From sequence record OQ411014.1: a DNA stretch of 64,000 bases. One strand, 5' to 3'. Within the stretch, counting starts at the first letter, position 1, and each line of letters opens with the position of its first letter. This DNA comes from Escherichia phage EJP2. Below are positions 6,731 through 31,430 of the stretch, piece by piece. A program made the position numbers and the translations under genes. The notes under the pieces are model-generated. The model did no database searches and was not told where the DNA came from. It saw nothing but the letters and a program-made list of their open reading frames with translations.

Positions 6731-6732
6731 TT

Positions 6733-8790: not shown

Positions 8791-8814
8791 ACTCTCTGAT
8801 TACATTCGCTGCCG

Positions 8815-8822: not shown

Positions 8823-8854
8823 AGTAAAAGTTCATAAAAGAGGGGCTTATTAAA

Positions 8855-9352: not shown

Positions 9353-9363
9353 GGAAAAATAAA

Positions 9364-9972: not shown

Positions 9973-9981
9973 GGATAAGAT

Positions 9982-11079
9982 ATGATTAACTATGAAATTA
10001 AACGTGCCAATGGTAAAATATATGCATCAATCCCCAATAACGCAATATTGGGTCCGAACTCACCAAACCAAAACCCAGTACCGATCAACTTGGTCGGTCG
10101 TAATAAGGTAGGTTATGGTCAAGCATACAATGAAAACGCATTGTGGTTAGCAGAAAACTTTGCTGGTCAATATGCACCAAAGGGTAACGTAACAGGCCAA
10201 CTATGGTATAAGTATACATCTGGTACAGGGGAATTACTAGTAGCTCTTAAAGATGATGCTGCTCAACCAGTAGATTCACAAACCGAATTAGAATGGGGTG
10301 CTATCCCTGCTATTACAGTGTTTAATACTGTCCCTGATGGTACTAACTCAATTATGGGGCGTATGGTACTAACAAATAATGGCGACCGTCTGATGGTTCT
10401 CATGAAGGATAAAGAGTGGCGTGAAATTCAAACTACTCGTCCTTCTAACAAACAGTATGAACGTCTACTAGATATTAACTATGACACAGGTGAGAAATTC
10501 ATTTCTTATACACAAACTAACAGTACTAAACCAGTTGCATACTTTAACGTTGGTGGTGCTCCTATTGTTGATTCGAACGGTTATACTACCTTCCAAGATG
10601 GCGATGGTGTATTCAACTTCGGTGCGAACTATTTCTTTGAAATGAATATTATCGCCCGTCAAGTCACTAATACTGGCACTACTGTAGTTCCCCAACCTGC
10701 AAACTATAAGACTTGGCAGATTAAAGGTCAGTTTTATGTTGATAACGCTGGTAATTTCACACCTGGCGTTACTGTGGCTTCGGCTCTACCAGATCCACGT
10801 AAGGTTGCTAACCTAACACAGATTAAAGATGAAATCACTAGTACTCAAGGTACATGGGATGTTAACGTAGTAATCAACGGGGTTGATACATCAGTCCCTG
10901 GTGCAAACGGAAATACTGGGGCTGATTATGAAAACTACGTCCTAGGTTCACTAAACTCTACAAAACACTTAGGTATTCGTATTGACGGTACTGTTTCTGG
11001 TCTTGGTGCTGGTCAATCTACTCTAACACAGTGGAGTGTACTACTAAAAATCACGGGTGTTCCTCCGGTTGGTGTTTAA
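9982..11079 (+). CDS. Hypothetical structural protein (365 aa)
   Basis: ORF with AAGGA RBS; contains a fibre-like GQLWYKYTSGTGEL motif; followed by a hairpin terminator. Confidence 0.55.
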   Translation: MINYEIKRANGKIYASIPNNAILGPNSPNQNPVPINLVGRNKVGYGQAYNENALWLAENFAGQYAPKGNVTGQLWYKYTSGTGELLVALKDDAAQPVDSQTELEWGAIPAITVFNTVPDGTNSIMGRMVLTNNGDRLMVLMKDKEWREIQTTRPSNKQYERLLDINYDTGEKFISYTQTNSTKPVAYFNVGGAPIVDSNGYTTFQDGDGVFNFGANYFFEMNIIARQVTNTGTTVVPQPANYKTWQIKGQFYVDNAGNFTPGVTVASALPDPRKVANLTQIKDEITSTQGTWDVNVVINGVDTSVPGANGNTGADYENYVLGSLNSTKHLGIRIDGTVSGLGAGQSTLTQWSVLLKITGVPPVGV

Positions 11080-11087
11080 TACAAATG

Positions 11088-11112
11088 AAAAAAGGAACCC
11101 GAAGGTTCCTTT
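11088..11112. terminator. Bidirectional hairpin terminator (GGAACC-CGAA-GGTTCC)
   Basis: Perfect 6-bp stem with CGAA/UUCG loop between convergent genes (ends at 11079 and 11111), A-run 5' and T-run 3'. Confidence 0.7.
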
Positions 11113-14554: not shown

Positions 14555-16840
14555 ATGAGTCAAACTTTCATTCAAATCTTCACCGATACTGAAAACTTTG
14601 CACAGAGTCTTGGTCATCGTTATATGTCTATCGACCATCTTTCAGTAACCGTGCTACAAATTCCTAGCATCATTGAAGCGTTGAATGCAATGTCTCTCGA
14701 TGCGGAACAAATCCAAGAACGTGTTCACCAGTACTTGAAAAGTGCTAACATTCCAGAGATTCCACAGAGTACGATGGAAGCTATTGGTGAAGATCGTGCG
14801 GCTATGAGCATTCAAATGTCTCGTATCATGGCTGAACTAAGCAAGAAAGCTGTACTGGAACAATTGAAGACTGATGATTATACTATTGCTCCGTACTTTG
14901 TACTTTTTGAATGTTTGTCCTTCCCTAATACTGCAATTGAAGCAGTACTGGAAGAATTAGGAACAACTCGTACTGAAGTGGCTCGTTCTCTTCAGAAACA
15001 TGTTGAACAAGTTGAACCATCAGTAGAACTAACTAAAACTTTCCAAGAACCGACTAAAGAGGGTAAACGAGTGGCACAACAACCACAGTCCAAGTCTAAG
15101 GGTATTGAAGATTACACCACTAACCTGACAGAAAAAGCTCGTAATGGCAATCTTGACCCGATGATTGGTCGTACCAAGGAACTCCAGAACCTAATCGAGA
15201 TTGTTTCTCGTAAGAATAAAAAGAATGCGTGTCTGACTGGTGAACCTGGTGTTGGTAAAACTCAAATCATTGATGGTTTGGCTCAAGCAATCGCTGATGG
15301 GAATGTTCCAGAGCATTTACAAGGTATTGAGATTCTTTCTCTGAACATGGGTGCGTTTACTGCGGGTACTAAGTATCGTGGTGAGTTCGAAGAACGTGTT
15401 GATGATTTCTTGAAAGAATTGAAAACTCGTGATAACGTAATCGTATTCATTGACGAACTACATACTATCATGGGTGCAGGTTCCAACAGTTCTGGTTCTA
15501 TGGATATGAGTAATCTTATCAAACCAGCACTATCAAGTGGTGAAATCCGTGTTATCGGTGCAACTACTTACGAAGAATATCGTAAACACATTGAGAAAGA
15601 TGGTGCACTAGCACGTCGCTTCATGAAAGTTGATATTGTTGAACCTTCTTTCAGTGAAACTCGTGAAATTGTACTCGGCGTTACCAGTACTTATGAGAAG
15701 TTCCATGAAGTTTCTTTCAGTGAAGCAGCAATTGAAGCAGTACTGAACCTGTCTAACAAGTTCATGAAAAACAAGCGTTTCCCTGACAAAGCACTAGATC
15801 TTCTTGATGCAGCAGCGGCAATGAAACGTACTCGTGGTGAAGACGATAATATCGTTCAAGAATCACACATCCAAGAAGTTGTGGCACGCATTGCTAACCT
15901 GGATATTTCTGTGGTAGCATGTAACGAAAGCGAACGCATGTCTAACCTACCAAATGCACTACGTTCTCGTGTATTCGGTCAAGATGATGCAGTTGAAAAA
16001 CTGGTTGATAACGTAATGGTTGCTCGTGCAGGTCTACGTGATAGTGCGTCAGTACAGGGTGCGTTCATTTTCCAAGGGCCGTCCGGTACTGGTAAAACTG
16101 AAATCGCTAAAGCACTTGCTGATGCAATGGGTTCTGAACTAATTCGTTTCGATATGTCAGAGTTTGCTCAAGAGCATACTGTATCCAAACTAATCGGTTC
16201 CCCTCCAGGTTATGTTGGTCACGAATCCGGCAACGGTCTACTGTTAGACAAAGTAGAACAATTCCCGAACTGTGTCCTGCTTCTGGATGAAATTGAAAAG
16301 GCTCACCCTAACATTCTACTAACCTTTCTACAGGTTCTAGATGAAGGTCGTCTAACTGGCTCTCAAGGTAAAACAGTATTCTTCAATAACGTAACTGTTA
16401 TCATGACTACTAACCTAGGTGCTAAACAAGCAGAAGTTCGTGCAATCGGTGGTTCCGGTGGCGACGATGGTATGGACAAAGCACTAAAAGCGTTCCTCCG
16501 TCCAGAGTTTCTAAACCGTATCGACAGTGTTGTGAAATTCAAAGAACTATCTGCTGAGGCAATTGATTCTGTAATCACCAAGTTCATGGCTTCTCTGGAA
16601 GAAACCGTTGCACCTAAAGGTGTTACCGTGAAACTAACTACCGAAGCACGTGCATGGTTGGCTAAGAATGGTGTTCAGGTTGGTATGGGTGCACGTCCAA
16701 TGAAACGTACCATCGAAAAACACATTCGTGTCCCACTAGCTAAAGAAATGCTTTGTGGTTCTCTACAAAATGGTGGTTCAATTACGTTTGACGTGATTGA
16801 TGGAACTCTAGGTGTAAAATCCAAACGTTCTAAAAAATAA
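14555..16840 (+). CDS. ClpA-like class-I AAA+ unfoldase (761 aa)
   Basis: Clp N-domain; NBD1 Walker A GEPGVGKTQI and Walker B VIVFIDELH; NBD2 Walker A GPSGTGKTEIAKALA, Walker B VLLLDEIEKAHPNI, LIGSPPGYVGH, sensor-2 GARPMKRTIE; no ClpB-type middle domain; own sigma70-type promoter and terminator. Confidence 0.9.
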   Translation: MSQTFIQIFTDTENFAQSLGHRYMSIDHLSVTVLQIPSIIEALNAMSLDAEQIQERVHQYLKSANIPEIPQSTMEAIGEDRAAMSIQMSRIMAELSKKAVLEQLKTDDYTIAPYFVLFECLSFPNTAIEAVLEELGTTRTEVARSLQKHVEQVEPSVELTKTFQEPTKEGKRVAQQPQSKSKGIEDYTTNLTEKARNGNLDPMIGRTKELQNLIEIVSRKNKKNACLTGEPGVGKTQIIDGLAQAIADGNVPEHLQGIEILSLNMGAFTAGTKYRGEFEERVDDFLKELKTRDNVIVFIDELHTIMGAGSNSSGSMDMSNLIKPALSSGEIRVIGATTYEEYRKHIEKDGALARRFMKVDIVEPSFSETREIVLGVTSTYEKFHEVSFSEAAIEAVLNLSNKFMKNKRFPDKALDLLDAAAAMKRTRGEDDNIVQESHIQEVVARIANLDISVVACNESERMSNLPNALRSRVFGQDDAVEKLVDNVMVARAGLRDSASVQGAFIFQGPSGTGKTEIAKALADAMGSELIRFDMSEFAQEHTVSKLIGSPPGYVGHESGNGLLLDKVEQFPNCVLLLDEIEKAHPNILLTFLQVLDEGRLTGSQGKTVFFNNVTVIMTTNLGAKQAEVRAIGGSGGDDGMDKALKAFLRPEFLNRIDSVVKFKELSAEAIDSVITKFMASLEETVAPKGVTVKLTTEARAWLAKNGVQVGMGARPMKRTIEKHIRVPLAKEMLCGSLQNGGSITFDVIDGTLGVKSKRSKK

Positions 16841-16846: not shown

Positions 16847-16875
16847 AAAAAGGAGCCTTTCGGCTCCTTTTTTTT
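16847..16875. terminator. Bidirectional hairpin terminator after the ClpA-like gene
   Basis: AAAAAGGAGCC-TTTC-GGCTCCTTTTTTTT; also terminates the convergent 3337-aa gene. Confidence 0.75.
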
Positions 16876-19800
16876 ATTTGATTAATCCAATAAGAATTAC
16901 AGGTGCAATATCCAAACTATCAGAATAAGTACTCAATGGGATTGGTTCATAACCATCACCGTATACTGCAATTTCATTAGTGTTACCTAAATTCAATCCA
17001 GTACTGGTATACGTTACATCCTTTTCGTAATAATTCTGAACAGTACCGTTATAAGCTCGAACAACGAAGTTGTTTTTGCGAACAAGCATTTGTTCTGCAT
17101 TAGATAGGATAATATCGTCAGGTACAACACCAGGCATTGTAGCGATACCATTTTCATAGGTCATGGTGCTTGCCATCTTCGGCTGACTTACGTGAGTGAA
17201 GCTGTCAAACATTGACTTATAAACAACAGTAACAGTACTGTTAGTGTTAATATACACACCATCAACTAGTGGTTTACTATAGATCCAAGAACCATTGTTA
17301 GCAGTAGGGTTAATTTCAGCTACATCGTATTCAAATACTGAAATTTCCAACGCGTCGGTCATTTTAGTACGAACCAATTCACTTAGTACACCTTTACCGT
17401 ACACTGGTAGGTAATATCCATTATCAACCACAGTTCCATCTTCTAGTGTTTGTGTCTCATTAGTACTGTACCATACATCATAGTCATTGGTAGTTAGTTC
17501 TGGTTCATAATTACCACCAATTAAGGAAGTGTCATAGAACACATCATAATCTAGAGCATCGACTCTGTAAGAACGGTTATTAGTATAACGAGTAATTCCA
17601 CCAGCACTAAACTCTGGGTCATTGAAAGATGTAACTCTAACAATGTTGATACTAGTTGGTTTGTTCTGGTTGTAAAGTGATTCATCAGTACTGTTATAAG
17701 TACTAGTGAAAGTTAATCCACCAATAGTTACAGTATTACCAGATACCGAAGTTACTTTAAACAACTTAGGACGATTAGCATCTTTAATTGTTGCTACACT
17801 CAATACAGTTTTCCAAGAACCATCGTTAATAGCGACTGCGTAATCTGAATTGTCTGGGACAAATACAGCTACCGTTTCGCCAACAACGAAATCATTATCA
17901 CCGTCAAGTTCAACAACACCACTTACTGAAGTTACGTTCTTAATACGATATGAATATTGAATTTCATTCTTTTCCAAAATGCTTCTATTCATGTATTCAA
18001 GAGCAACATCATAACGTGGAATACTTACAAGGGCTTCTGAGCGATTATATGGGTTTTGTACGATATAACCTTCAATATTAAAGTTACCTTGATCACGTAA
18101 TTGTGTCTGTACTGAAGTATCAAATCCATATCCATCAACTGTGAATCTTAGCTGTGCCATATCACGTTTAGATGGGTTAAGTTCTGAAATGTCTACAAAT
18201 ACAGGATCGTTAGTACTGTTAGCGACACCAACAACGGAGTTAATAATAGTTTTAGTTTGTGATTCTAGAGCTAAGTTATCGAATGCGTTTTTATCATCAA
18301 AGAATACTTCTTTATTCAAGCCTGACATGATTTGTAAGAAATCACTATATAGTGGGTTCTTATCATCTTCTGGAACGTCATCAAGTGATGGTTGGCTTAG
18401 GCGAACCATATCCCCATCAGTGATATACACTTCTTCCATATATTCTTCTATGCCAACATTCGAAGGAATGCTATAATCTTTTCCTGGAGTAGTTTCACTC
18501 ATTAGGAAAACATATTTCCTAGGCATCAACACTACTGCATAAGCATCAACATCAAGATTCTCTAATACTTTCTCTGCTGCACTATACGGGTCAGTTTCAT
18601 CAGGATTATAAGTCCCTCTAAGTGCTGATAGAACGTGTACTGCATCAGTATAGAAACGATTAGATTCTGGATTATCATCAGTTTCAGGGATTACATATTT
18701 CCATGTATATAAACCGTATTCATATTCCATGTACTCTAGAATCTCAATGTGAGAGAATCCAGGGTTTGCTTCCTTAACTTGATCATAAATCAAATCATAC
18801 ATTGGTTTGCTGTAAGAGATATAACCATAGTTTTCACCATTGCTTGCACTAAATCCAAACGGCAACCTTGTGCTTGGGTTATCACTCAGTACTAGACCTT
18901 TAAATGGACAACCTACTTCAGAACCAATAGTTTCATCAGATTTGGAAGTTGTTAGCTTCAAACGGTTTGAAAGCGTGTTGTACTGAACATAGTTGCGTAC
19001 TTCACTAACCGATTCAGATTTCTCTTCTGCTTCTGCAATTACACGATTAAGTGTAGCTGTAAATTCATCAGATGCTTCAACATCATTAATTAGTGTTGCA
19101 TACATTTGGTCTAAACCATATTTCAAACCACTACTAATATTCATGTTCGGATAGTACTGCGTAATACCGTTCATGATTAATGTTTCCAACTCAGCATTAT
19201 TAATTTCAGGGAAAGTATATGCATAACGCTGGAGCATGTAGTGGGAGCCTTTTACAAGGAAGTCACCAGTATTAGATTGGTATTTCTTGTTCACGTTTTC
19301 TAGTGTTGTTATATCTGCCATATCGGAAGATGGTTTGCACTGGAAGTTGTCAAAGTCAAGAATAACATCAATCTCTTGGAAACGGCGGTTTGGTAGTACG
19401 AAGTTATTTGGTAGTGAGCCTACGATTTCCCACTTCTGACTTACATCGTTGAATTGAGCATATTCGTAATCCCAAATATCTTTTTGTGTTTTAACCCAAG
19501 CACCATCAACATAGATATAACCGTTAGGATCTAAATCGTTTAATAGACCGTTGATTTCATCTTCATCAGATGTCTTCTGCTCTATTTGTGAACGGATTTT
19601 AGTTCTGTATGGTTTCACTTCTTCAAAGTACTGTACGATTTCATTTATTAAATTACCATCAGTAGTTGATCTTTGTTGTAGTGATTGGTCTAGACCAATA
19701 ATATAAATGTAAGAGGTTTTGAATACCCAGTCCACGACTTTCTGCTCAGTGTGTACGTACTTAACCATGTCAAATACTACAGTACTTTGTACAGAGTTGA

Positions 19801-22800
19801 ATGAACCTTTGAGTAGTGCTAATGCTGCACGAACGTTTTTCTCATTATTCGTTAATGCACCATCGCTGTTGTATTGTGAGTAGTTGTTATAAAGAACATT
19901 GTTCAATTGTACAGTGCTCTTCTCACGACCAACTGCTACCCATTGAACTTGACCACGTGATTCAGTTTTTTCATATAATGTCCAGACACCATCGGCATCG
20001 GTAATACGAATCAAATCACCAATCTGGTAGTTTTTAGTGTTAGCAATTTGAATGCTTGTTTCTTCGGTATATTCTGATTCTTCATCAAAACCAACACTAT
20101 ACCAATCAGCATAATCCCAGTAGGTTGTCATATCTAATGAAGTACCAAGCTGATCAATATAGTCAGTTTGCTTAATCATAGTATGTTGACCTTCACCACG
20201 ACTCTCTAGAGTGATAGTTACCGCAGTACCAGAAGTACTTGGGCTATTCATCAAGTGAATGTAACCGTTGTCGTCGTAATGCACAAAGTACACACTAGTA
20301 CGGTTTAGTGGTGCTGGTAATGTACCATTAGTATTAACCAGTACTGCGTCATTCTCTACAAATTTGTTTTCATTTGTGGTGATAACCAATTCGTTGTTAT
20401 AAGTTAGTACTTTAAATCCAACTTCGTTCGGGTTCACAGCGTCAGTCTTCTTAAAGAAGATATCATCCATTACTACAGTGTCAGTTGTCATGTTAATATG
20501 CTTGTACACATTGTTTGCTGAATCAACAAACGTCCTACGAGCTTCTATAACGTCCATAAACCATGTTTTGTTTGCACCTAGACCCAAGTCAGTACTTGGA
20601 TAAGATAACTCAACCACGTTGCCGTTTAGGAGGGTTTCTTGAGACTCCAAAGAGTTCCATAGAGAATTCCAAATAGCTGGGTTGAAGTTGTATTCTTCAC
20701 CTTCTTTACAAAGTTGATACTGTTCATGTTTAATAACATCATCATTATTTTCTTTGTAAGAAACAGTCAATATACTCTTATCATCGTTAATGTCGTGCTG
20801 CATATTAGATAGAATAAAAGAATTCTCATCTACTGGGGAGAACCAAGGAACTCCGAGTACTGAAGGATCAGCAATAATGCGAGCAATCTCATTACAAGAT
20901 TTGGTACGATGCTTAACATGTGGAGTATAGATTGTATCTTTAACCCAGAAGTAATACATTGGCACATAAGTGTTAGTACTAGCATCATATTCAACAAAAT
21001 AAGAATAGTTTTCAGTAACTGCTGTACCGGATGGTAGGTAAGTGGTCTGGCCTTTATTTTGTTTTTGTTGTTCAGTGCAATACTGATCCCAGTTATATGG
21101 TTCTACTGGCGATTTAACCCATTCGTACACATCAATACTACCATGTGGAAGGATTTTACCCCAATTATAACGCTTATATTCTAGAGTCTTATTTACATCG
21201 ACGTTCCCATTAGCATCAAGGATTGGACGAGTATAATCCATGAAGAATGCAGAAGAAGTATCCCACCAAACTTCACCAACTTTATCAGAACCCCAAGCTA
21301 GTAATGTTTCACCATCACTATTGTAGGTTGCTGGGTCACGAGTAGAGGTATATGAAACGTTTGACATTGCCACACCAGGGATAATACCATTGATTGGGTC
21401 ATATGTGTTAATATACATCTCAACAACGTTAGTCATGGAGTTGTAGGTACTTGGGCGGTCGAACAACGAACTGTTAGGTGCTAAGTACTCATATTTTTTC
21501 TGAACGTATGCATCTTTCGCTGCTTTAGTACTGAAACGTGGAACGTATTTGTACATTACAGGTTCTGCACCACTGAAATCAAAATCTACAGTACTGTCGA
21601 ATGCAACAACTATAGTATTTGCAGTAACACCATAGAATTGTGTTTCTTCACGTAGGAAATCAGGCATATAACCGGACTCATCAACGAAGAAGTAAGTATC
21701 ACCATTACTTAGTGTAGATGAAGAACTTAATTCTAGTGTTACTTTCTGTGCTGCGTATTGGTCATCAGTAATAATTGGAGTAATTTTCTTCAAAGTGATA
21801 TTGGTTTTAACAATATCATAGATATTCCAGTTATCATTAGAATCCTGAAGAACCCATACAGACGATGGTAGTGTATTGTAATCGGAAGTATACTTAGAAC
21901 GGTCTTCATAAGCAGTTTGTAGGTCTAGAGTAGTGAATGACACTTCATCTAGAGTTACAGGGCCGATATTTGGCAACTGAATGTTGTCAGATGCACCTTT
22001 ACGCATTGGGAAAGAGAACAAACCATGTGGACGAGTAATCCAACGTGGGTCTACACCTGTTTTACCAAAATAAACGATGTTATTTGCAGTACTGTCCACA
22101 GTTGCATTCTGGTCGAATGTAACCAATTGTGGTTGTTGAGCAAATTCGTTGTTAATTAGTTGGAACTGTAGGTTCTTTTTGCCATATACGTTGCCATATT
22201 CACCGATTTTGAAAGCCCACTCTTGTAGTGCTTTGTAACCTTCGGTATTATAGGTTTTTGATACACGTAGAACACGTTCGAGTACTTGATTAGTACCTTT
22301 GTCACGGATGAAGCCTTTATAGAAATCAACGCGGGCTGGTTCTGATGTGATCATTTCGTTTAAGTAACTTCTGGACTGGTATCCAATTAAATGATTCGCT
22401 AGGGAACGCAATTGAACATCAGATACTGGATTTTCAGTGTCATAATAGTGTCTAAAGTCATCTACTAGTTTTTCAAAGTCAGGTAGTGTGCCAGTTTCGA
22501 GGATAATAAAGCCAGGTGCTTCCAAACGACCATTCCATGAGCCAGTTACATAACCGTACATACGAATCAATTCTTGAATTGAACCATAAGTTGGAATATA
22601 GATGTTATCACCAAAAATAGTTTTATCATCAAACACGATAGCATGTTCATAAGCGATTAAGCTCAAACGAATAAGAGCAATACGCTTGTTGTATTCTTCT
22701 AAACTACGAACAGTGATGATGTTACCGATACGTGCAGTTTCAATTTCATACGGACGAATACCTGTATTATTATCATCTAGTAGAGTCCATAGACCACCAC

Positions 22801-25800
22801 TATATTGTGCAACTGATTCAACAGAACCAAAAGACGCACCGAATTTAACACTTTTAGTACTTGGAGAACAAGAAATATATTCACCACGAGCTAGAGCAGT
22901 CTGACTCCAGTTCAAATAATCCTTCGCAATTTGATTCCAGTTTAGAGTGTTGCCGTTCTCGTCAGTTTCTTCGAAAATAAACCCAACACGTTCCAAATAT
23001 TCACCATAAGCACACAAGAAAGTGTAAACTTCTTGGAAAGAATTCAGTACTGTACCGTATTCAATACTTTGAACTTTATCAGTGTACTCATTGTAATGAA
23101 CTACTGTACGATTACCTTCACGAATAGTAACACGCTTACCATTACGGTTAGGAGTTAAGTATTTGAAGGATGCACCAACTAGATCATAACCAGTAATCTG
23201 ATATCCAGTGCCGTTCCATGTGATATCAACAGCACTCATTGATTCTTCACGGATGGAAGAGCTACGAACTAGACCGATATGTTGGTTTTCTTGAGAAATT
23301 AGACCGAATGTATCAGAATAAAAACTCAATTGGTCTTCTTTACTGAATCCACCAAGTTTATGACCCACATTAATATGTGAACTACGTAAAACGTCACCGT
23401 ACTTAGTAGTAATATCCATTTGTTTGTACTGTAGGTGATCAGTTATGAACATTTGGTATCCTAGGATACGGCTATTGTTCTCATTGTTCACTAGTGTAGT
23501 ACTGTTTAGGTTCAAACGTTGGTTGGTTTCACCAAATAGGAACTGTTCTTTACCACGATAAACTGTTTTAAGAGTACTACCACGAGTATCATAGAAATAG
23601 TTTGCAAACTGTGCTGGTTTAGCACGATATAGTAGTAGAGCTTCATCATATGGGAACATTGCAGTGTTGCGGTAAGTGAATTCAATATCACCCATGTCAC
23701 CATAAGACCACGGTTCTGCACGATGATCAAGGGAACCAGCCACTAAACCTAGAACTTCTGGAGCAATCAGTTCAAATGTGCGAATTTCTTCACCATCTGC
23801 TGTGAAATTACCAGTACCTTTAATAACGAATGGCTGTTTACCAAAACGTTTGTATTTTGCATAAGTTCCTTTGTTCTTACCATATAGAATTGTACCAGTA
23901 CTAGCGTCACCTTTAATACTACCAACATCCCATAGACCACTTGGTACTAATTGGTTGTTTTCATCAATAACTTCAGCTTCATACACGTATACAACTTCAG
24001 TTGGGTCTTCACCAATACGAATTTTGGTTGGTTCATATTCTTGGTTCCACCAAGATGGGCGTTGAGCAAAACCTAACATTTCCCACGGGTGGGTTGCTGG
24101 GCGATATGTACCGAACATGTCACTATAAATTGCTCTCCATGAGCCACGTGCTGGAATATCGGTAACAACGCCATCAACAACATAAGTTGTTCCTTTGTAG
24201 TTCCAAGTTAACCAGTTATTTGCATCATAATCATGTGTACTGTTATCAATACCGTTAGTTGCGATGAAGTTAGTGTAACCACGTAGTAGAAGTGTTTGCT
24301 TCTCGTCACGAGTATAGTCAGTTTCAGTAAAATAAGGAGTCGGGAATAGATCACTCTGAACAAGTTCAGGTACATAATCAATATCTTTGAAATCATTATC
24401 AATACTGTTGAAAATACGGTTTTCTAGTTCGTAAATCACATCATCCATACGACCTACACCATTCAGTACTTTATACGCCTTGGTAATTGTACCAGTATGG
24501 CTTACGTTATAACAACCTAGGTCACGACCAGCATACATATAAGTCGCTTTCTGTGGAGCGTACGCTTTTAGAATACCAATAAACTGTGGAGTCGGTGGAA
24601 TGAAGGCACGAATGTTAGAACTGGAACTACCCATCGCATCAATGAAGAATGGGAAAGTATTATTCTTACCAACGTTAATATTATTAAGAATTGCGTCAAC
24701 AATATTAGATGCACTGTTGGAAGTGAATGCAGATGGATCTTCATTGTACATATTAACCATTTGAGTATTGAATTTGTTCATGAAACGGAAGTATTCAGAT
24801 TGCATAAATTCAATTGCAGCAAATAGGTCAATATTTTCATTCGCTGTGTTAATCATTAGTGGAAGCATAGATGCTTCGTTCTGGATAATCTTAGTACCGA
24901 CAGAGTTATCAACTAGACCTTTAGCAAGACGTTCTTCGTAGTCGTTAAAATCATTTACTGTACCAGTAGTGATGTTACGTTGAATAATTTCTTGGAAATG
25001 TGGTGTATATAGACTTTGATCAATATAAGTGATAAAATCATTATACGGGTTGTTCTGTAGGTTGATTGGAATTTCATAAGAACCCAAGTTAGTATCTGGT
25101 GTTTGTACAGGACTGTAAGTTCTGATTTCAACAATGCTATCATCGGTTAGTTTGATAGAACTATCTAGAGTTATAGATTCAACAAGACCATTTTTATCCA
25201 ATTTAGTACTGAACTTTGTGGTTTCTTCTGTACCAACACGCACATAAAGTACATCTGTGCTTGATGATAGGTTGACACGTTGAGCTAGTTCAAATGTGTG
25301 GTTAAAAAGTTCAGATGGAACGTAGTCATTACCAGCTTCACGATGCCAGTCCATAAAAGTACTGTTATCTGCTTTGTAATATTTGAATGTTGCATCAATA
25401 TCCATTACATAAGCGTACATATTTTCAATTGGATTTTGGAAATTATTCATCTCTTGTACAGTACTGAATACATTGTACATAGAGGTTTTGGTCATAGCAG
25501 GAACTTGACGAACATACTGTTTGGTAAATTCATCGCTACGATCCCAGTCTGATTTTAGATTTACTGAACCGTCAGAACCAATTACGTTATAGTAATACAA
25601 ACCAGAAATTTCAGTAGTTGCTCCAACTTTATCATAATCATAACGAGTACTCTGAATGAAGTTCTCGAAAACATAATAGTTGTAAGAGTTCAATTCAACG
25701 TTAGTGTTATAGATTTTATTGTAGTTGTAGTCAAAGTTAACTTTAAGGCCAAATAGTGGGGAACCTTTAAAAGAACTACTTGGGTAAATTTGAGGATCGT

Positions 25801-26887
25801 TTAGTTTAGTCCCGTTGCGATCATACAATTGGAACAATGGGGTACTGTTAATACCTGATTTAACTTGTGTACGAATCCATGCTGAACCATTCCAGTACAT
25901 AGAAGTGTTTTCATAAACTTGACCAGATTTAATTAGAACAACGTCACCACGCAAAGGTTCACCCGTTGGGCGTAGCTCAGATTCTTCATCTTCATCAAGA
26001 GCAAGACCATATACACGAGTGCCAGCTTCGGTTTGTTTAATGTAAACTTTATAGATTCTGTTATTTTCACCGCTGTTACCGATACTAGTGAATAGAATAC
26101 GGTCACCAGCTTTAAGAATAAAACCATCAACACGAATTTCATCAGAAACTGATTTCTGTACAATATCTTCTGGTTTGATGGAGTCTGATAGGTACGTGAC
26201 TACACCACGGAAAGTAGTTCCGTAATTCATTAGTTCGATGTTTTTGTTATATTCAATGATTGGTGCTTGAGCATGAGTGAAGCGTTCATCTTGAGTCATG
26301 TCATCAGTTAGTACTGTGCCGTCTGGTAATTCTTGACCTACAGTAAACCAATAGTTTTGTAGTGACCATGTGTTACCGTTATCAGCACCACGTTCCATAA
26401 CGATATAATCCGGTGCAATACCAAATTCGTTATTATTGTCCCAAACATAAGAACTGTAGTTCATCATTTTATTTGGGTTGATTGGTGGAGTCCATGAATA
26501 AAACTTACCATCAAATAGGCGTGACTGGTTATCAGTTAAGGAACCATAATGGGACATATATCCTACTAGGTCTTCATAGAACTGCATAGAGCGAACGCTT
26601 GTGTCGGTATTACGAGACACATAAACTGGTGATAGTTGGTAGTCTTGGCGTTGTTGAGAACTTTCTTTGATGAAAATCTTTCCAGCCGCTGACGGAGTAC
26701 CACGGTCACCTATATACCCGTCAACAATTTCTTGTTCGGCAGGGTTGAACCATTGCTGGATTACATCATCACAAAAAGTTTGGATCTGTTCTAGACCTTG
26801 CATCCACTCAGGCAATCTTTTAATGAATAGCTTTTTTTGTACAGCATCTGCCGCTAGGGTTGGCTGGAACTTAAATTCATTCGACAT
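16874..26887 (-). CDS. Giant virion structural protein (~3337 aa), probable baseplate or tail-fibre component
   Basis: Uninterrupted ~10-kb ORF. Track start is 26908; the third ATG (MSNEF) at 26887 has a GGAGAAT RBS and an exact late motif at 26923-26930. Lies next to the gp6-like gene. Confidence 0.7.
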   Translation of the reverse strand: MSNEFKFQPTLAADAVQKKLFIKRLPEWMQGLEQIQTFCDDVIQQWFNPAEQEIVDGYIGDRGTPSAAGKIFIKESSQQRQDYQLSPVYVSRNTDTSVRSMQFYEDLVGYMSHYGSLTDNQSRLFDGKFYSWTPPINPNKMMNYSSYVWDNNNEFGIAPDYIVMERGADNGNTWSLQNYWFTVGQELPDGTVLTDDMTQDERFTHAQAPIIEYNKNIELMNYGTTFRGVVTYLSDSIKPEDIVQKSVSDEIRVDGFILKAGDRILFTSIGNSGENNRIYKVYIKQTEAGTRVYGLALDEDEESELRPTGEPLRGDVVLIKSGQVYENTSMYWNGSAWIRTQVKSGINSTPLFQLYDRNGTKLNDPQIYPSSSFKGSPLFGLKVNFDYNYNKIYNTNVELNSYNYYVFENFIQSTRYDYDKVGATTEISGLYYYNVIGSDGSVNLKSDWDRSDEFTKQYVRQVPAMTKTSMYNVFSTVQEMNNFQNPIENMYAYVMDIDATFKYYKADNSTFMDWHREAGNDYVPSELFNHTFELAQRVNLSSSTDVLYVRVGTEETTKFSTKLDKNGLVESITLDSSIKLTDDSIVEIRTYSPVQTPDTNLGSYEIPINLQNNPYNDFITYIDQSLYTPHFQEIIQRNITTGTVNDFNDYEERLAKGLVDNSVGTKIIQNEASMLPLMINTANENIDLFAAIEFMQSEYFRFMNKFNTQMVNMYNEDPSAFTSNSASNIVDAILNNINVGKNNTFPFFIDAMGSSSSNIRAFIPPTPQFIGILKAYAPQKATYMYAGRDLGCYNVSHTGTITKAYKVLNGVGRMDDVIYELENRIFNSIDNDFKDIDYVPELVQSDLFPTPYFTETDYTRDEKQTLLLRGYTNFIATNGIDNSTHDYDANNWLTWNYKGTTYVVDGVVTDIPARGSWRAIYSDMFGTYRPATHPWEMLGFAQRPSWWNQEYEPTKIRIGEDPTEVVYVYEAEVIDENNQLVPSGLWDVGSIKGDASTGTILYGKNKGTYAKYKRFGKQPFVIKGTGNFTADGEEIRTFELIAPEVLGLVAGSLDHRAEPWSYGDMGDIEFTYRNTAMFPYDEALLLYRAKPAQFANYFYDTRGSTLKTVYRGKEQFLFGETNQRLNLNSTTLVNNENNSRILGYQMFITDHLQYKQMDITTKYGDVLRSSHINVGHKLGGFSKEDQLSFYSDTFGLISQENQHIGLVRSSSIREESMSAVDITWNGTGYQITGYDLVGASFKYLTPNRNGKRVTIREGNRTVVHYNEYTDKVQSIEYGTVLNSFQEVYTFLCAYGEYLERVGFIFEETDENGNTLNWNQIAKDYLNWSQTALARGEYISCSPSTKSVKFGASFGSVESVAQYSGGLWTLLDDNNTGIRPYEIETARIGNIITVRSLEEYNKRIALIRLSLIAYEHAIVFDDKTIFGDNIYIPTYGSIQELIRMYGYVTGSWNGRLEAPGFIILETGTLPDFEKLVDDFRHYYDTENPVSDVQLRSLANHLIGYQSRSYLNEMITSEPARVDFYKGFIRDKGTNQVLERVLRVSKTYNTEGYKALQEWAFKIGEYGNVYGKKNLQFQLINNEFAQQPQLVTFDQNATVDSTANNIVYFGKTGVDPRWITRPHGLFSFPMRKGASDNIQLPNIGPVTLDEVSFTTLDLQTAYEDRSKYTSDYNTLPSSVWVLQDSNDNWNIYDIVKTNITLKKITPIITDDQYAAQKVTLELSSSSTLSNGDTYFFVDESGYMPDFLREETQFYGVTANTIVVAFDSTVDFDFSGAEPVMYKYVPRFSTKAAKDAYVQKKYEYLAPNSSLFDRPSTYNSMTNVVEMYINTYDPINGIIPGVAMSNVSYTSTRDPATYNSDGETLLAWGSDKVGEVWWDTSSAFFMDYTRPILDANGNVDVNKTLEYKRYNWGKILPHGSIDVYEWVKSPVEPYNWDQYCTEQQKQNKGQTTYLPSGTAVTENYSYFVEYDASTNTYVPMYYFWVKDTIYTPHVKHRTKSCNEIARIIADPSVLGVPWFSPVDENSFILSNMQHDINDDKSILTVSYKENNDDVIKHEQYQLCKEGEEYNFNPAIWNSLWNSLESQETLLNGNVVELSYPSTDLGLGANKTWFMDVIEARRTFVDSANNVYKHINMTTDTVVMDDIFFKKTDAVNPNEVGFKVLTYNNELVITTNENKFVENDAVLVNTNGTLPAPLNRTSVYFVHYDDNGYIHLMNSPSTSGTAVTITLESRGEGQHTMIKQTDYIDQLGTSLDMTTYWDYADWYSVGFDEESEYTEETSIQIANTKNYQIGDLIRITDADGVWTLYEKTESRGQVQWVAVGREKSTVQLNNVLYNNYSQYNSDGALTNNEKNVRAALALLKGSFNSVQSTVVFDMVKYVHTEQKVVDWVFKTSYIYIIGLDQSLQQRSTTDGNLINEIVQYFEEVKPYRTKIRSQIEQKTSDEDEINGLLNDLDPNGYIYVDGAWVKTQKDIWDYEYAQFNDVSQKWEIVGSLPNNFVLPNRRFQEIDVILDFDNFQCKPSSDMADITTLENVNKKYQSNTGDFLVKGSHYMLQRYAYTFPEINNAELETLIMNGITQYYPNMNISSGLKYGLDQMYATLINDVEASDEFTATLNRVIAEAEEKSESVSEVRNYVQYNTLSNRLKLTTSKSDETIGSEVGCPFKGLVLSDNPSTRLPFGFSASNGENYGYISYSKPMYDLIYDQVKEANPGFSHIEILEYMEYEYGLYTWKYVIPETDDNPESNRFYTDAVHVLSALRGTYNPDETDPYSAAEKVLENLDVDAYAVVLMPRKYVFLMSETTPGKDYSIPSNVGIEEYMEEVYITDGDMVRLSQPSLDDVPEDDKNPLYSDFLQIMSGLNKEVFFDDKNAFDNLALESQTKTIINSVVGVANSTNDPVFVDISELNPSKRDMAQLRFTVDGYGFDTSVQTQLRDQGNFNIEGYIVQNPYNRSEALVSIPRYDVALEYMNRSILEKNEIQYSYRIKNVTSVSGVVELDGDNDFVVGETVAVFVPDNSDYAVAINDGSWKTVLSVATIKDANRPKLFKVTSVSGNTVTIGGLTFTSTYNSTDESLYNQNKPTSINIVRVTSFNDPEFSAGGITRYTNNRSYRVDALDYDVFYDTSLIGGNYEPELTTNDYDVWYSTNETQTLEDGTVVDNGYYLPVYGKGVLSELVRTKMTDALEISVFEYDVAEINPTANNGSWIYSKPLVDGVYINTNSTVTVVYKSMFDSFTHVSQPKMASTMTYENGIATMPGVVPDDIILSNAEQMLVRKNNFVVRAYNGTVQNYYEKDVTYTSTGLNLGNTNEIAVYGDGYEPIPLSTYSDSLDIAPVILIGLIK

Positions 26888-26922
26888 TTTATTCTCCATA
26901 AAATTCATTTCTTCATTTGTTT

Positions 26923-26930
26923 TATTTATA
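26923..26930 (-). promoter_or_regulatory. T4-type late promoter motif TATAAATA on minus strand (3337-aa gene)
   Basis: Plus-strand TATTTATA, ~36 bp upstream of start 26887. Confidence 0.5.
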
Positions 26931-26964: not shown

Positions 26965-29900
26965 TTAGTTACCAATATTAATGTTACTCTTAGCCAAAGA
27001 ACTGACTATCTGAACGTTATCTACCGTTGCAGTACTGATAAACAACTGGTCAGGTCTACAAGGTATTTCAAACAATTCACCGAACTTACTATTGGGGTCT
27101 TGTGGAACGATCACAACTGCTGCCACATCAGTAGCCATACTTACTTGAATGTAAGTACTCAATTCTGTGAAGTAGAATGTCTCACCAAAGTCCCAGTTCT
27201 GAACATCGAAGTAATTACGAGTCAACTCGACAACTTTCTGACGAATTTCATCATTACTCAATGTGGTAGTAGGTAGTTTAACGATTTTTAAATCTGCACG
27301 ATAATCTTCATCTGCACTTGCACCAAATAGTTTTAAGAACTCAGCACTATGCCAAATGGAACTATCACTAATTACCATTTTACCCTCAACTTCAGTAAAC
27401 ATGTCTTGTAATTCAACTGATGTTGGTGGTTTAGGGAATTCACCAACTGCACCATTCTTAATCCAGATATTAACTGAATCATAATAGTTAGTAGTTAGAA
27501 CATACATATCAATTAAGTTTGTACGGCTTGGGTCGATACGGTTATCATCTGGAGCATAATGTTTCCATTGGAAATTTATACCGGTACGTGCACCAGTCCT
27601 GACAGTGTATTCATTACTCACATCAACATAACCATAATAAGACAATTTTAGCTTCTCGTCTTTATCATCTTGACCTTCATTCTGTGTTGCACGATAGAAT
27701 GCGAGTTCAGGACTGATAGTACTAGTGTCAGTTGGTAGCATCAGGTTGGAAATGAAATTATCAAGACGTTCGTTGTTGTTACCAACTGTTTGTTGAATGA
27801 AATGATATTCACCATCGTACTGATATGCAATCAAATACCCTGAACCATGATTATACAAATCACTAAAAGAATTGCTTCTTATTTGAACATTTCGCAAGAA
27901 CTCTTTTCTACGATACGCATTCACTTCTGCGTTTGCTTGTGCAGTGGTGTAAGTCCATGATGTATCAAGAATAGTATATGAATCATCATCTTCCAACATA
28001 TCAATAGTAAAATCATCGTTCTCATGGAATATCAACACACCACCATATTTTTGAAGGTCAGTACCGGACAATGTTGGAACTAAGCTACTGTACAAATCTG
28101 GTTCAAGAGGAATACCGTTGCTATCAGTGTTTTTACTAGTTATGATAACACGAGAACCATCAAGATATCCATTCTCTTGTTGAATAGTATCGTAGATTTG
28201 GAAATCAATATTCTGACTGTAACCCAAGTTACTTGTGTAAGATGCGTTATTGTTTAGGATTGCAATCTTGTCAGACTGAACAGTACCAGTACTGATATCA
28301 CTAATCTTCTTGGATGAAACAAAGTAGAATTTAACTTTAGAACCACCAACAAAAATGTACTCAACACCATTACTAACAAATTCCCATGATTCCGCAGTGT
28401 ATTGAACGTTCACTAGAATTGGATATGTAATACCATTATATAGAATTGTTGAACCACTGTATGTTCCTTCAATTGGAATCCATGTATGGGATGATGTGTC
28501 ATAGATGATAACGAAATCAGTCTTCTTATCAATGGCTGCTGCAATTTGTTGAACTTCAGAAGTATTGAACTTAACACGATATGGTTCAATATAAGAATCA
28601 ATAGTCATTGCTGCATCTACTGGTGTAGACAATACATAATAACCATCATCCAGTACTGATACGATAGAAGTCCAAACGGAGTTACCAGTAGTACCTTCCA
28701 TCTTAATCAACGTACCAACTTCATAGGTTTCAATCGGTACACCACTCTGTAGGAATTGACCATAAGTATTGTTCGTATAAGATGAGTTGTGCTCTGGAGT
28801 CCATATTTGGTTAAACGTAACAACGATTGTGTTGCTGTCCCATTGTTGATAATATTGAATAACAGAGTTCTCCCCAAGCAATGGTTGAATATTATCTATC
28901 ACAATACTTTCATTGCTTTTTGGTGATGGTAGAAGAAGAGTGTTACTCTTATTCACGTTCTCTTTATACATTGCACCATCATCACTAAACACATCAGTGT
29001 TTTGATATTTCCCAGTAGGGTCATTGATATCAATGAATCTGGACATACCGCTATAGATACGGTTTAGTGCTTTTCCTTTAATTACTGCGTTACCTAGCAT
29101 TAGTGGTGCGATATTATAATCTTCACCAGTAACGAAACGGTCTTGGGTGTAATACATTTGTGGAGCACGGTCTTTAATCTGTTCGATGGTTTCAGCACTC
29201 TGTGCTAGTCTGGATTCACGTTGTAGTGTGAATTTGACATCCAATGAACTATTTTCATAATCAGTTTGTGACTTAGTACGGTAAACATACTTAACACTTT
29301 TATTCTGAATTGAACTGGTCTTGATAGTGTATGATTTACCATTACTAACACGATACCATACACGGTATGTACCACGAGGAACAGTACCTGAACGTGCATC
29401 TGGATACTTAATTGTGATTTGGTCACGGTCACGAGTAGTTACAGAATAAATTGTTTTCTTTTGACGATCAACTGAGTTATATGCAATACTTTCCATTGAT
29501 GGAACTTGTGTCCATTTGGTTCTTACTATACCATCTTCGTTGATTTCTTGAACCCATACATCAGTTTGGTTTATATTGTCAACGTTCACATCCTGTAAAC
29601 GGTTTTCAATTCGAGTATCATACTGATAATCACTATAAGACAATGAACCTTGTTTAAAGTAAACAAAGAAGCCTGTATCTGGTGAACTAAAACCATTACC
29701 ATCATTTGAATAGATAATGTACTTCTGGTCTTGTGGTTCTGGCATACGTTCAGAAACACCAACAGTACTGATATCTGGGTTAACAACTTCGAACGTTACT
29801 GTTTCGCCGTTGATGTTTGCACTAAATGGCATATTAGGAGCACTCATAGGTAGAGTGTTCATGCGATACAATTGAGTGTTAATACCATTAATCATAATCT

Positions 29901-30426
29901 TCTTAACTGGATTACCAAATTGGTTAGTACTGATGAATGAACTATTCATAACTAGAATAAAGTTCTCGTACCAGTTAGGATCTGCTGGGTCATTCCATTG
30001 AATCGTACGGCCTTTAAGAGATTGGTTGTAGCTGTTTAGTACGTCTTGGTTTGTTTTAATTTCAGTAATTTTGGCTACTGCACGACCTGGATAAGCACGC
30101 TTAGGTGAATACGAAATCATCTTAGCAAGTTTCAGTACTGAAGCTCTGCGTTCTGCGGTATCTAGGAAGTTTTCACGAGTGTTCATGTCCATACGGAATG
30201 CCAAGTTCTGCCCTAGCATACTAATGGTGTCGAGAATGAAGATGAATTCGTCGTTTTCAATCCAGTCGTTGAACTGATCTGGATAAGTGATTCGTAGATA
30301 CTCTACCATACTTTCACGAATCGTATCAAAGTCAAAAGCGGTAAGGTTGATCTTATAAAAACTCTCATACACCTGCTTCCAGTCCTCGGCAGTGTATAAG
30401 TTGGACTGTCTTTTTTGTTGTGCCAT
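26965..30426 (-). CDS. 6: Baseplate wedge protein, gp6-like (~1153 aa)
   Basis: N-terminal region INLTAFDFDTIRESMVEYLRITYPDQF resembles the T4 gp6 N-terminus (..DYDFEGSRLNVLCDLLAYNTLYIQQF); sits directly after the gp25-like gene as in T4-like baseplate clusters. Start moved to MAQQKRQ (AAGGA RBS). Confidence 0.55.
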   Translation of the reverse strand: MAQQKRQSNLYTAEDWKQVYESFYKINLTAFDFDTIRESMVEYLRITYPDQFNDWIENDEFIFILDTISMLGQNLAFRMDMNTRENFLDTAERRASVLKLAKMISYSPKRAYPGRAVAKITEIKTNQDVLNSYNQSLKGRTIQWNDPADPNWYENFILVMNSSFISTNQFGNPVKKIMINGINTQLYRMNTLPMSAPNMPFSANINGETVTFEVVNPDISTVGVSERMPEPQDQKYIIYSNDGNGFSSPDTGFFVYFKQGSLSYSDYQYDTRIENRLQDVNVDNINQTDVWVQEINEDGIVRTKWTQVPSMESIAYNSVDRQKKTIYSVTTRDRDQITIKYPDARSGTVPRGTYRVWYRVSNGKSYTIKTSSIQNKSVKYVYRTKSQTDYENSSLDVKFTLQRESRLAQSAETIEQIKDRAPQMYYTQDRFVTGEDYNIAPLMLGNAVIKGKALNRIYSGMSRFIDINDPTGKYQNTDVFSDDGAMYKENVNKSNTLLLPSPKSNESIVIDNIQPLLGENSVIQYYQQWDSNTIVVTFNQIWTPEHNSSYTNNTYGQFLQSGVPIETYEVGTLIKMEGTTGNSVWTSIVSVLDDGYYVLSTPVDAAMTIDSYIEPYRVKFNTSEVQQIAAAIDKKTDFVIIYDTSSHTWIPIEGTYSGSTILYNGITYPILVNVQYTAESWEFVSNGVEYIFVGGSKVKFYFVSSKKISDISTGTVQSDKIAILNNNASYTSNLGYSQNIDFQIYDTIQQENGYLDGSRVIITSKNTDSNGIPLEPDLYSSLVPTLSGTDLQKYGGVLIFHENDDFTIDMLEDDDSYTILDTSWTYTTAQANAEVNAYRRKEFLRNVQIRSNSFSDLYNHGSGYLIAYQYDGEYHFIQQTVGNNNERLDNFISNLMLPTDTSTISPELAFYRATQNEGQDDKDEKLKLSYYGYVDVSNEYTVRTGARTGINFQWKHYAPDDNRIDPSRTNLIDMYVLTTNYYDSVNIWIKNGAVGEFPKPPTSVELQDMFTEVEGKMVISDSSIWHSAEFLKLFGASADEDYRADLKIVKLPTTTLSNDEIRQKVVELTRNYFDVQNWDFGETFYFTELSTYIQVSMATDVAAVVIVPQDPNSKFGELFEIPCRPDQLFISTATVDNVQIVSSLAKSNINIGN

Positions 30427-30533: not shown

Positions 30534-30926
30534 TTATGCGGCATTTGAAACAATTGCCATCTTTTCGTTCGCTTCTCTGTCGAACTGTATGAATAGAGTT
30601 TCTTCGGTGTCGAGTTCCACATAGTAAAGGAACAAGTTAACACGAAAACCTCTATCAGTACTTAGGACTTCAACATATTGGAGTGAAACTCTAGGGTCAC
30701 CAGCAACAATGCGACGAGCATCCGCTTCTAATAGATTTTTATTACTATAAATGTCCAATTCAAATAATAAATCCCACCCTACAAATCCATATTGTGCATC
30801 CATAGCACGTTCACCTTTTCTGGTGTTGAAGTGGTTTAATAGATCGCGTTTGACTAGCTCCACATCATAAAGAACTTCAGTTCTTCCCACCTGTGGGGAT
30901 GCAAACCCCTTGTATATCACTGCCAT
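30534..30926 (-). CDS. 25: Baseplate wedge protein, gp25-like (130 aa)
   Basis: Size and motif (YDVELVKRDLLNHFNTRKGERAMDAQYG) match the gp25/GPW family. Confidence 0.65.
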   Translation of the reverse strand: MAVIYKGFASPQVGRTEVLYDVELVKRDLLNHFNTRKGERAMDAQYGFVGWDLLFELDIYSNKNLLEADARRIVAGDPRVSLQYVEVLSTDRGFRVNLFLYYVELDTEETLFIQFDREANEKMAIVSNAA

Positions 30927-30941: not shown

Positions 30942-31430
30942 TTATTGGGATTCTACAATACGAGCTAATTTCTCTGCACGTGAAGTAGTTTGCTTATACC
31001 AAGTACTATCACGCATTTGACGTCCAGCTTCTTTATAATCACCCGCACCCATAGCAGCTAATGCTTTTTTGAAACCTAGAACACGACGTTTACCCATTTG
31101 AAAACACATTTGCCACAATACACGCTGGAGATCAATACCACCTTTCATACCGAATTGCTCATAAATCTCTTTTGCGTCATTAAATGCAACAGTTGCGTCT
31201 TTAATTAGTAGTGCATCGCCTTCTGACTCAGTTAAACCATTAGGAAATGTTTCGCCATTTACTAGCAAGTGACCATAACCAATAGTTGGTAAACCTAGAC
31301 TGTCTTTATATACATGAAACCGCCCGTTTTTAAAATATCCCTTCTTAGTTTGATAAGCGATAGTACCTTCATGCTCACGTACTTCTTTGTGGAAGATACT
31401 ATCGTCATTTTTTAAAACCCAATTGCTCAT
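30942..31430 (-). CDS. T4-lysozyme-like GH24 endolysin (162 aa)
   Basis: EHEG...YKDSLGLPTIGYGHLL and C-terminal MRDSTWYKQT align to T4 lysozyme with the catalytic Glu/Asp/Thr positions conserved; paralog of the C-terminal domain of the adjacent spike gene. Confidence 0.85.
   Translation of the reverse strand: MSNWVLKNDDSIFHKEVREHEGTIAYQTKKGYFKNGRFHVYKDSLGLPTIGYGHLLVNGETFPNGLTESEGDALLIKDATVAFNDAKEIYEQFGMKGGIDLQRVLWQMCFQMGKRRVLGFKKALAAMGAGDYKEAGRQMRDSTWYKQTTSRAEKLARIVESQ

Follow-up and report, generated by a model that had tools for sequence, protein, structure and literature searches.

The question raised by this locus is what is encoded by a single open reading frame (ORF) of about 10 kb that adjoins the baseplate wedge genes of Escherichia phage EJP2 (OQ411014.1), of which a stretch of 64,000 nucleotides, here called the window, was analysed. 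By sequence, the product of this ORF, hereafter the giant protein, is a member of phrog_10938, the conserved largest protein of RaK2-like jumbo phages and a family already catalogued. On balance, we lean towards placing it in the baseplate as an outer-wedge scaffold, present once per wedge and attached to the (gp6-like)2/gp25 inner wedge, with its variable loops and C-terminal third directed outward for fibre docking or surface contact.

The giant gene and its orthologues

The gene and its putative ribosome-binding site are located as follows.

16874..26887, minus strand: giant ORF, 3337 amino acids (aa) plus stop codon, 380 kDa, pI 4.6
26894..26897, minus strand: Shine-Dalgarno GGAG, six bases before ATG 26887, read from the sequence

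The single minus-strand ORF extends over 16874..26908, which corresponds to 3344 aa from the first ATG, with zero internal stops in the translation. The ATG at 26887 (3337 aa) is likely a better start than the first ATG at 26908, since GGAG lies six bases upstream of it and the orthologues align from this Met; M1 (ATG 26887) was invariant in two orthologue alignments. The first-pass annotation of the locus had given the same ORF and start, which are borne out by the intact translation, the GGAG and the orthologue alignment. At a G+C content of ~38%, ~6.6% of random codons (~1/15) are stops, and at this frequency the ORF is not expected by chance, the probability of 3337 open codons being ~1e-100 as computed from base composition.

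The match to phrog_10938 ('virion structural protein') had E = 0 and 4810 bits, with residues 1-3327 aligned to profile positions 1-3315 of 3324. Orthologues include RaK2 ORF070, GAP32_230, CBB_236, phAPEC6 gp245, PA5oct gp128 and Hallingskeid CDS0427. In the phage collection searched, the closest isolate protein is that of Hallingskeid (74% identity), and the best nucleotide identity was ~74% over part of the gene; the window is thus that of a RaK2-like jumbo myovirus. CBB_236 was detected in CBB virions by mass spectrometry (MS) with 21 peptides and 7.7% coverage (PMC5259590). Similarly, phAPEC6 gp245 (381.9 kDa) was found in virions by MS with 17 peptides and 7.6% coverage, and in the virion list it adjoins gp244, a 131-kDa 'baseplate wedge' protein (PMC7247149). 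PA5oct gp128, among the two largest proteins of its phage (PMC7318152), is flagged as detected by electrospray ionization tandem MS (ESI-MS/MS) in its GenBank record, and genome comparisons of CBB were anchored on its largest ORF (PMC5259590). By orthology with these MS-detected proteins, the giant protein can be assigned to the virion, in line with the first-pass annotation, and it is most likely a low-copy component. Neither a function nor a structure has been assigned to the giant protein in the papers searched on these phages.

The orthologous ORF is intact in GAP32 (Cronobacter; 10,026 nt), PHA46 (Salmonella; 10,029 nt), RaK2 (Klebsiella, ORF070; 9,981 nt) and Hallingskeid (Erwinia; 9,993 nt), encoding 3326-3342 aa. 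A tblastn search with the first 3000 aa returned 92 phage records, and in 72 of these a single collinear place accounts for at least 80% of the query. Together with the 1178 cluster representatives described below, these records agree with the earlier remark that very large structural proteins are characteristic of some large T4-related phages. Furthermore, an identical 3344-aa product was identified on an independent public assembly (Logan SRR25245152). Codon comparison with Hallingskeid gave proportions of synonymous differences (pS) of 0.59-0.76 and of nonsynonymous differences (pN) of 0.07-0.35. The ratio of nonsynonymous to synonymous substitution (Ka/Ks) was 0.05-0.15 in every 300-codon window, C-terminus included, with synonymous sites near saturation at this distance (74% amino-acid identity). 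The codon comparison thus places the whole giant gene under purifying selection.

Frameshift splits in related genomes had been named as a possible sign of error, and only a few records contain them, most relatives being intact. In Salmonella phage SD-1_S14, the orthologue (1501-11448 of the locus) consists of three coding sequences (CDS) in frames 1/0/1, equivalent to two compensating frameshifts, and the SD-2_S15 orthologue is annotated as four CDS. We read both splits as sequencing errors, since these assemblies (311 and 322 kb) are shorter than those of their relatives and the other genus members carry the intact gene. In the RefSeq record of K64-1, 18 'hypothetical protein' features lie under the match besides 'virion structural protein'. 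All three cases are probably sequencing or annotation errors.

Gene order next to the wedge genes

Two genes upstream of the giant gene define its genetic context.

26965..30426, minus strand: gp6-like baseplate wedge gene, 1153 aa (ATG 30426), immediately upstream; phrog_10646, phrog_219; DUF8360 on the identical contig
30534..30926, minus strand: gp25-like wedge/sheath-initiator gene, Pfam GPW_gp25

The matches of the upstream gene to phrog_10646 and phrog_219 ('baseplate wedge subunit') and to DUF8360 confirm that the giant gene adjoins a gp6-like wedge gene, as had been proposed; the N-terminus at ATG 30426 aligned with the orthologues. The order GPW_gp25, DUF8360 (gp6-like, 1,150-1,470 aa), giant was conserved at 12 of 12 loci, namely the window, GAP32, PHA46, RaK2, Hallingskeid, PA5oct, Atu_ph07 and five metagenomic contigs (one of 570 kb). 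The stop of the gp6-like gene and the start of the giant gene often abut or overlap (loci L008, L015 and Atu_ph07). The third chain of the wedge heterotrimer in contractile systems (T4 gp7, P2 gpI, Mu gp48, Pam3 gp23) is the product of the gene that follows the gp6 homologue. Judged by gene order, the giant gene occupies the genetic slot of T4 gp7, P2 gpI and Mu gp48. In Pam3, the docking sites for the fibres are located on this third wedge chain (PMC9942802).

In phages other than the RaK2-like group, a tiny ORF (41-53 aa) usually comes after the giant gene, then an ORF of ~200 aa and, further on, one of ~500-700 aa. In PA5oct, it is followed by two small genes and a Gp10_C protein (gp125, Pfam Gp10_C, E 1e-23). 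Homologues of two of these downstream genes were identified elsewhere in the window.

9364..9972, plus strand: 202-aa gene, homologue of the ~200-aa gene after the distant giant genes (hmmsearch E 5e-52)
9982..11079, plus strand: 365-aa gene, relative of the PA5oct gp125 (Gp10_C) family (hmmsearch E 1e-10)

Since these homologues lie on the other strand, the two-gene block 9364-11079 has been shifted ~7 kb away and inverted in RaK2-like phages. The 41-53-aa ORF of the distant loci weakly matches the stop-to-stop frame 9346-9969, which holds the 202-aa ORF (E 3e-4). We infer an ancestral order of gp25, gp6, giant, two further genes and a gp10-like gene, which would parallel the T4 order gp6, gp7, gp8, gp9, gp10.

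Wider family and anatomy of the protein

In a search of 5.8 billion proteins, 174 relatives were identified, the best 120 of which measure 2,386-5,765 aa. A profile of aa 1395-1600 (206 residues) was additionally searched against 1.84 billion representatives of 50%-identity clusters and recovered 1,178 representatives at E <= 1e-3 and 700 at E <= 1e-30. Among the best 150 of the 1,178, nearly all are 2,000-6,300 aa long, with the block located 1,300-2,200 residues from the N-terminus. The isolates with this family are jumbo phages only: the RaK2-like group, Vibrio 2.275.O, Atu_ph07, Phosso, PA5oct-like phages, SCTP-2, Stenotrophomonas CM1 and Xanthomonas Xoo-sp13. One family member is encoded on a contig of 570,549 bp (ENA ERZ27315719, k141_202852), and the longest contig for cluster P0076 reaches 853 kb. 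Another member (P0021), entered as a Salmonella enterica serovar Braenderup hypothetical protein, lies on a 371-kb contig, probably a jumbo phage in a bacterial assembly.

Alignment with distant members revealed four collinear blocks in common, forming a colinear core of ~2,450 aa.

25538..26830, minus strand: conserved block A (aa 20-450), insertion hot spot after aa 149-157; predicted local-distance difference test score (pLDDT) mostly >85 from aa 80
21938..25090, minus strand: conserved block B (aa 600-1650), the longest conserved stretch
22088..22705, minus strand: most conserved segment (aa 1395-1600), invariant residues in the alignment; partly helical, low-confidence when modelled alone
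20438..21490, minus strand: conserved block C (aa 1800-2150), following the main insertion hot spot at aa ~1650-1800
19538..20140, minus strand: conserved block D (aa 2250-2450), the last block common with distant relatives
16877..19537, minus strand: lineage-specific C-terminal part (aa 2451-3337), still under purifying selection

The C-terminal 890 aa are kept only in the RaK2-like homologues and the nearest metagenomic relatives, and other modules replace this part in distant members. Variable stretches or insertion hot spots follow aa 149-157 and occupy aa 450-600, aa 1650-1800 and aa 2150-2250. In distant relatives, the inserts comprise ~200 aa after aa 149-157 and from several hundred to ~2,500 aa, in the largest members, at aa 1650-1800. 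The inserts and tails of distant members carry CBM_5_12, FG-GAP, YHYH, Big_9, He_PIG, TIG and cadherin-like modules, with the FG-GAP repeats located in the aa 1650-1800 hot spot. Since the inserted modules are all of the extracellular binding type, there is an indication that the insert positions and the C-terminus may be exposed on the particle.

The giant protein itself gave zero matches in Pfam (E <= 0.01) and NCBIfam scans, in agreement with the earlier reading that it has no recognised motif. Relaxed PHROGs and Pfam scans of the most conserved block returned only phrog_10938, and no internal repeats were found by self-BLAST. Searches of PDB sequences by phmmer and profile (whole protein, family profile and two block profiles) gave no meaningful match. 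Additionally, hhalign comparison of blocks of the giant protein with the gp6-like family, seeking paralogy of the gp6/gp7 type, found nothing.

Predicted structure

Two AlphaFold2 single-chain models were built (aa 1-1200 and aa 1259-2458), each from a 24-row alignment. The first, with a mean pLDDT of 82.8 and a predicted template-modelling score (pTM) of 0.79, points to a compact body of several domains, mostly beta and including helical sub-domains (aa 624-737 and 812-878), low confidence being limited to aa 1-57 and the variable aa 470-525. The second has a mean pLDDT of 74.3 and a pTM of 0.48. Most 10-residue blocks in aa ~1560-2400 exceed a pLDDT of 70, and aa ~1412-1550, within the most conserved segment, fall below 50 and contain several predicted helices.

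A Foldseek search of the aa 1-1200 model against the PDB found nothing (best E 0.36), and the confidently modelled parts appear to have no close solved counterpart. The models offer no more than a hint of a gp7-like core in the giant protein. A tape-measure protein was rejected as an identity, the models being mainly beta and not the long helical coil expected of one. A tail fibre or tailspike was likewise rejected, given the lack of repeats by self-BLAST and the compact model.

Proposed role in the baseplate

We infer the baseplate location of the giant protein, its equivalence to gp7, its copy number, its interface regions and its docking role from several observations taken together. The first is the order of the gp25, gp6-like and giant genes at all 12 loci, accompanied by the PA5oct downstream Gp10_C gene, which echoes the T4 order. 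Among the T4 homologues listed for CBB (gp6, gp25 and gp53 only), there is no other gp7 candidate (PMC5259590). Also counted in favour were the MS-detected orthologues at low coverage (7.6-7.7%), the compact and confidently predicted aa 1-1200 model, unlike a fibre, and the extracellular binding modules at the variable positions of the relatives. Late expression was counted as well, on the grounds of an upstream late-promoter motif and a gp55-like gene in the window.

In the proposed arrangement, each wedge would contain one giant chain (six per virion), bound to the (gp6-like)2/gp25 inner wedge by way of a conserved segment. Two conserved helical regions that are poorly predicted in isolation, the N-terminus (aa 1-57) and the most conserved block (aa ~1400-1560), are put forward as candidates for this interface, purely as a conjecture. 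A rigid body of several domains, chiefly beta and with some helical sub-domains, would be formed by the rest of the ~2,450-aa core. The variable loops would face outward together with the lineage-specific C-terminal 890 aa, for tail-fibre docking or contact with the cell surface. The giant protein would probably take the architectural place of gp7 (P2 gpI, Mu gp48) in smaller contractile-tail phages.

Several results weigh against this placement. PF21428, PF21456 and PF21427, the gp7 domains carried by all of the 120 T4 gp7 homologues listed, were not found in the giant protein. BLASTP of the giant protein against T4 gp7 found nothing, hmmsearch against the T4 gp7 family gave negative scores, and hhalign of ten blocks of the giant protein against a 40-sequence gp7 alignment remained below 1% probability. 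Comparison by hidden Markov model (HMM) and profile with T4 gp5, 6, 8, 9, 10, 11, 12, 53 and wac also found nothing. The hhalign negatives are weak, since the positive control, a true pair (the gp6-like family and T4 gp6), reached only 11.7% probability in this insensitive set-up; they exclude a close and not a remote relatedness to T4 proteins. Furthermore, T4 gp7 was not in the top 60 Foldseek matches of either model (aa 1-1200 and 1259-2458), and a convincing fold match was obtained for none of the T4 baseplate proteins. The papers searched on these phages contain no experiment placing the giant protein within the virion, and the PHROGs category of phrog_10938 is 'head and packaging', a category given to every 'virion structural protein' family matched here.

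The first-pass annotation had also suggested a fusion of several wedge or fibre components, to be compared with gp7, gp8 and gp10. This comparison found nothing: no gp8, gp9, gp10 or gp11 segments were identified by hmmsearch or hhalign. In addition, PA5oct encodes a separate Gp10_C protein, and a member of its gene family lies at 9982-11079 in the window. There is thus no support for T4 gp7, gp8 and gp10 being fused here. T4 has a stoichiometry of one gp7 to two gp8 to three gp10, and the 3337 aa of the giant protein approximate that sum (1032 + 668 + 1806 = 3506 aa), a curiosity that is no evidence of fusion, against which the comparisons argue.

We also considered a broader proposal, which we put forward tentatively and regard as doubtful. 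The family may represent a wedge component of a new kind, a 'mega-wedge' consisting of one chain, most of whose folds lack a solved counterpart, and replacing the T4 periphery (gp7, gp8, gp10 and partners) across a very large, mostly uncultured jumbo clade (at least 1,100 clusters at 50% identity, genomes to ~570 kb), with the hot spots and the C-terminus serving as exchangeable host-range cassettes.

Alternative roles

Among the alternatives, the one that survives best, itself somewhat unlikely, is that the giant protein is a baseplate accessory, either a fibre-network hub or a secondary receptor-binding structure, and that a smaller unrecognised protein acts as gp7 in the (gp6)2-gp7 module. 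This would fit the absence of detectable similarity to gp7-type proteins and the adhesion-type inserts in relatives. The module also contains several 'virion structural protein' genes without an assigned role (517, 781, 251, 202 and 365 aa). However, the strict place after the gp6-like gene at 12 of 12 loci, kept over very large evolutionary distances, is the gpI/gp7 position, and the conserved core far exceeds the size needed for binding. The neighbouring small proteins, moreover, matched no gp7, gpI or TssG family.

It is improbable that the giant protein is located elsewhere in the virion, as tail-surface 'whiskers', in the neck, in the head interior, or as a protein ejected into the host. 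Hair-like tail fibres occur in CBB and phAPEC6 (PMC5259590, PMC7247149), the PHROGs category points to the head, and giant internal virion proteins are found in other phages, such as the N4-type virion RNA polymerase (PMC10925440). However, RaK2, PA5oct, Atu_ph07 and marine relatives, which are not known to bear whiskers, conserve the gene to the same degree, and it lies inside the block of hub and wedge genes. The compact aa 1-1200 model and the lack of fibre-type repeats also argue against this location, and Pfam and NCBIfam scans found no polymerase, nuclease or other enzyme motif.

A chiefly enzymatic function on the tail, as a polysaccharide depolymerase or peptidoglycan hydrolase, is highly improbable. 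It would draw on the carbohydrate-binding modules of relatives and on a few weak fold matches to glycosidases and tailspikes. The carbohydrate-binding or enzymatic domains suggested in the first-pass annotation were not detected in the giant protein by Pfam or NCBIfam, CBM5/12, FG-GAP and YHYH being present only as inserts in distant members.

Finally, an artefactual origin of the ORF, by mis-assembly or by the read-through fusion of genes, as the two or three related GenBank records with the region split into several CDS might suggest, can be practically dismissed, assembly error being excluded by the identical product on an independent assembly, the intact ORF in dozens of independently sequenced phages, the uniform purifying selection and the 382-kDa product in the phAPEC6 virion proteome (PMC7247149).

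Putative expression signals and neighbouring genes

Putative expression signals were identified on both sides of the giant gene.

26923..26930, minus strand: T4-type late-promoter core TATAAATA, exact motif, 36 nt upstream of the giant start codon
26938..26961, minus strand: terminator-like hairpin between the gp6-like and giant genes, 10-bp stem with 5 G-C pairs and a T-run
16847..16872, no strand assigned: bidirectional terminator-like hairpin, 11-bp stem with T-runs on both strands, directly after the giant stop
14555..16840, plus strand: convergent with the giant gene; ClpA/ClpB-like ATPase carrying a ClpB D2-small domain and two AAA+ modules

From these consensus matches, from which promoter and terminator functions are deduced, the giant gene looks like its own late transcription unit. 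Six copies of TATAAATA were found in the window, a count not above chance (5.4 expected), at 6665-6672 (minus), 8815-8822 (plus), 26923-26930 (minus), 48603-48610 (plus), 50195-50202 (plus) and 54578-54585 (plus). All six lie within ~65 nt upstream of a same-strand ORF start. The gp55-like late sigma factor gene in the window was assigned by synteny.

The hairpin at 16847..16872 is common to the giant gene and the convergent ClpA/B-like gene. This ATPase gene is kept in GAP32, RaK2 and Hallingskeid and is not annotated in PHA46; PA5oct, Atu_ph07 and the metagenomic loci lack it at this position. Its product could be a chaperone for assembling the 380-kDa giant protein. Beyond it lie genes for a 517-aa structural protein and a gp15-like protein. 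On the other side of the giant gene, upstream of the gp25-like gene, two further genes were identified.

30942..31430, minus strand: free-standing lysozyme, 162 aa
31464..34196, minus strand: gp5-like hub with lysozyme domain

The 162-aa lysozyme and the C-terminal lysozyme domain of the hub match the same positions of phrog_13211 (727-885), so the former looks like a tandem duplicate of the hub domain. The hub also has a weak M23 peptidase match, below the Pfam cut-off. Upstream beyond the hub, a 781-aa structural protein, a gp53-like protein and a 251-aa structural protein are encoded. Elsewhere in the window, at 996-6605 (minus), a 1869-aa tail-fibre protein matched phrog_4549 in seven separate stretches and therefore appears internally repetitive. 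The five GTG-start ORFs (149-314 aa) opposite this gene are probably spurious.

Significance

In itself, the finding is an ordinary annotation within a catalogued family; its moderate interest lies in a widespread, strongly conserved giant protein in the baseplate module. The giant protein is the largest gene product of RaK2-like phages, universally kept beside the wedge genes and without a solved structural counterpart. RaK2-like jumbo phages are under development against Klebsiella, E. coli, Salmonella, Erwinia and Pectobacterium. For RaK2 adsorption, the N-terminal fibre anchor domain of gp528 has been defined and its baseplate docking partner has not (PMC10253068). If the giant protein is indeed a scaffold in the gp7 slot, it would be an obvious candidate for the fibre-docking platform and for the transmission of the attachment signal to the sheath, and its variable inserts would map the sites of exchangeable host-range modules. 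Additionally, the triplet of gp25, DUF8360 and giant genes offers a practical metagenome marker for this jumbo-phage clade.

Comparison with known systems

The giant proteins of RaK2-like phages share full-length collinear homology with that of the window (58-74% amino-acid identity; 3326-3342 aa where checked). They have the same neighbours, with the gp25-like and gp6-like genes upstream and the convergent ClpA/B-like ATPase gene downstream, and sequence divergence is the only difference. Distant members, such as PA5oct gp128 (3857 aa), Atu_ph07 AUZ94962 (4449 aa) and metagenomic proteins of up to 6281 aa, share the four collinear core blocks (24-32% identity by BLASTP) and the gene order gp25, gp6-like, giant. 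They differ from the window protein in large inserts and in other C-termini with CBM_5_12, FG-GAP, YHYH, Ig-like and Rcc01698_C-type modules, which are missing or only degenerate in the window protein.

Close to their C-termini, distant members carry a small 'ERIEY...RGTxGT' domain that matches Rcc01698_C of RcGTA Rcc01698 ('megatron'), a tail-tip/baseplate protein of a non-contractile tail; the match was obtained for 4 of 12 members (best E 7e-5). In the window protein this motif is degenerate or vestigial, and outside the domain the proteins are unrelated. Mu gp48, P2 gpI, Pam3 gp23 and the T6SS (type VI secretion system) protein TssG are ~20x smaller than the giant protein, with similarity at noise level and without a sequence relation shown. 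With T4 gp7 (PF21428, PF21456, PF21427), the giant protein shares the position of its gene directly after a gp6 homologue and the character of a large, multi-domain late structural protein, and the PA5oct giant gene, lying upstream of a gp10 homologue, extends this likeness.

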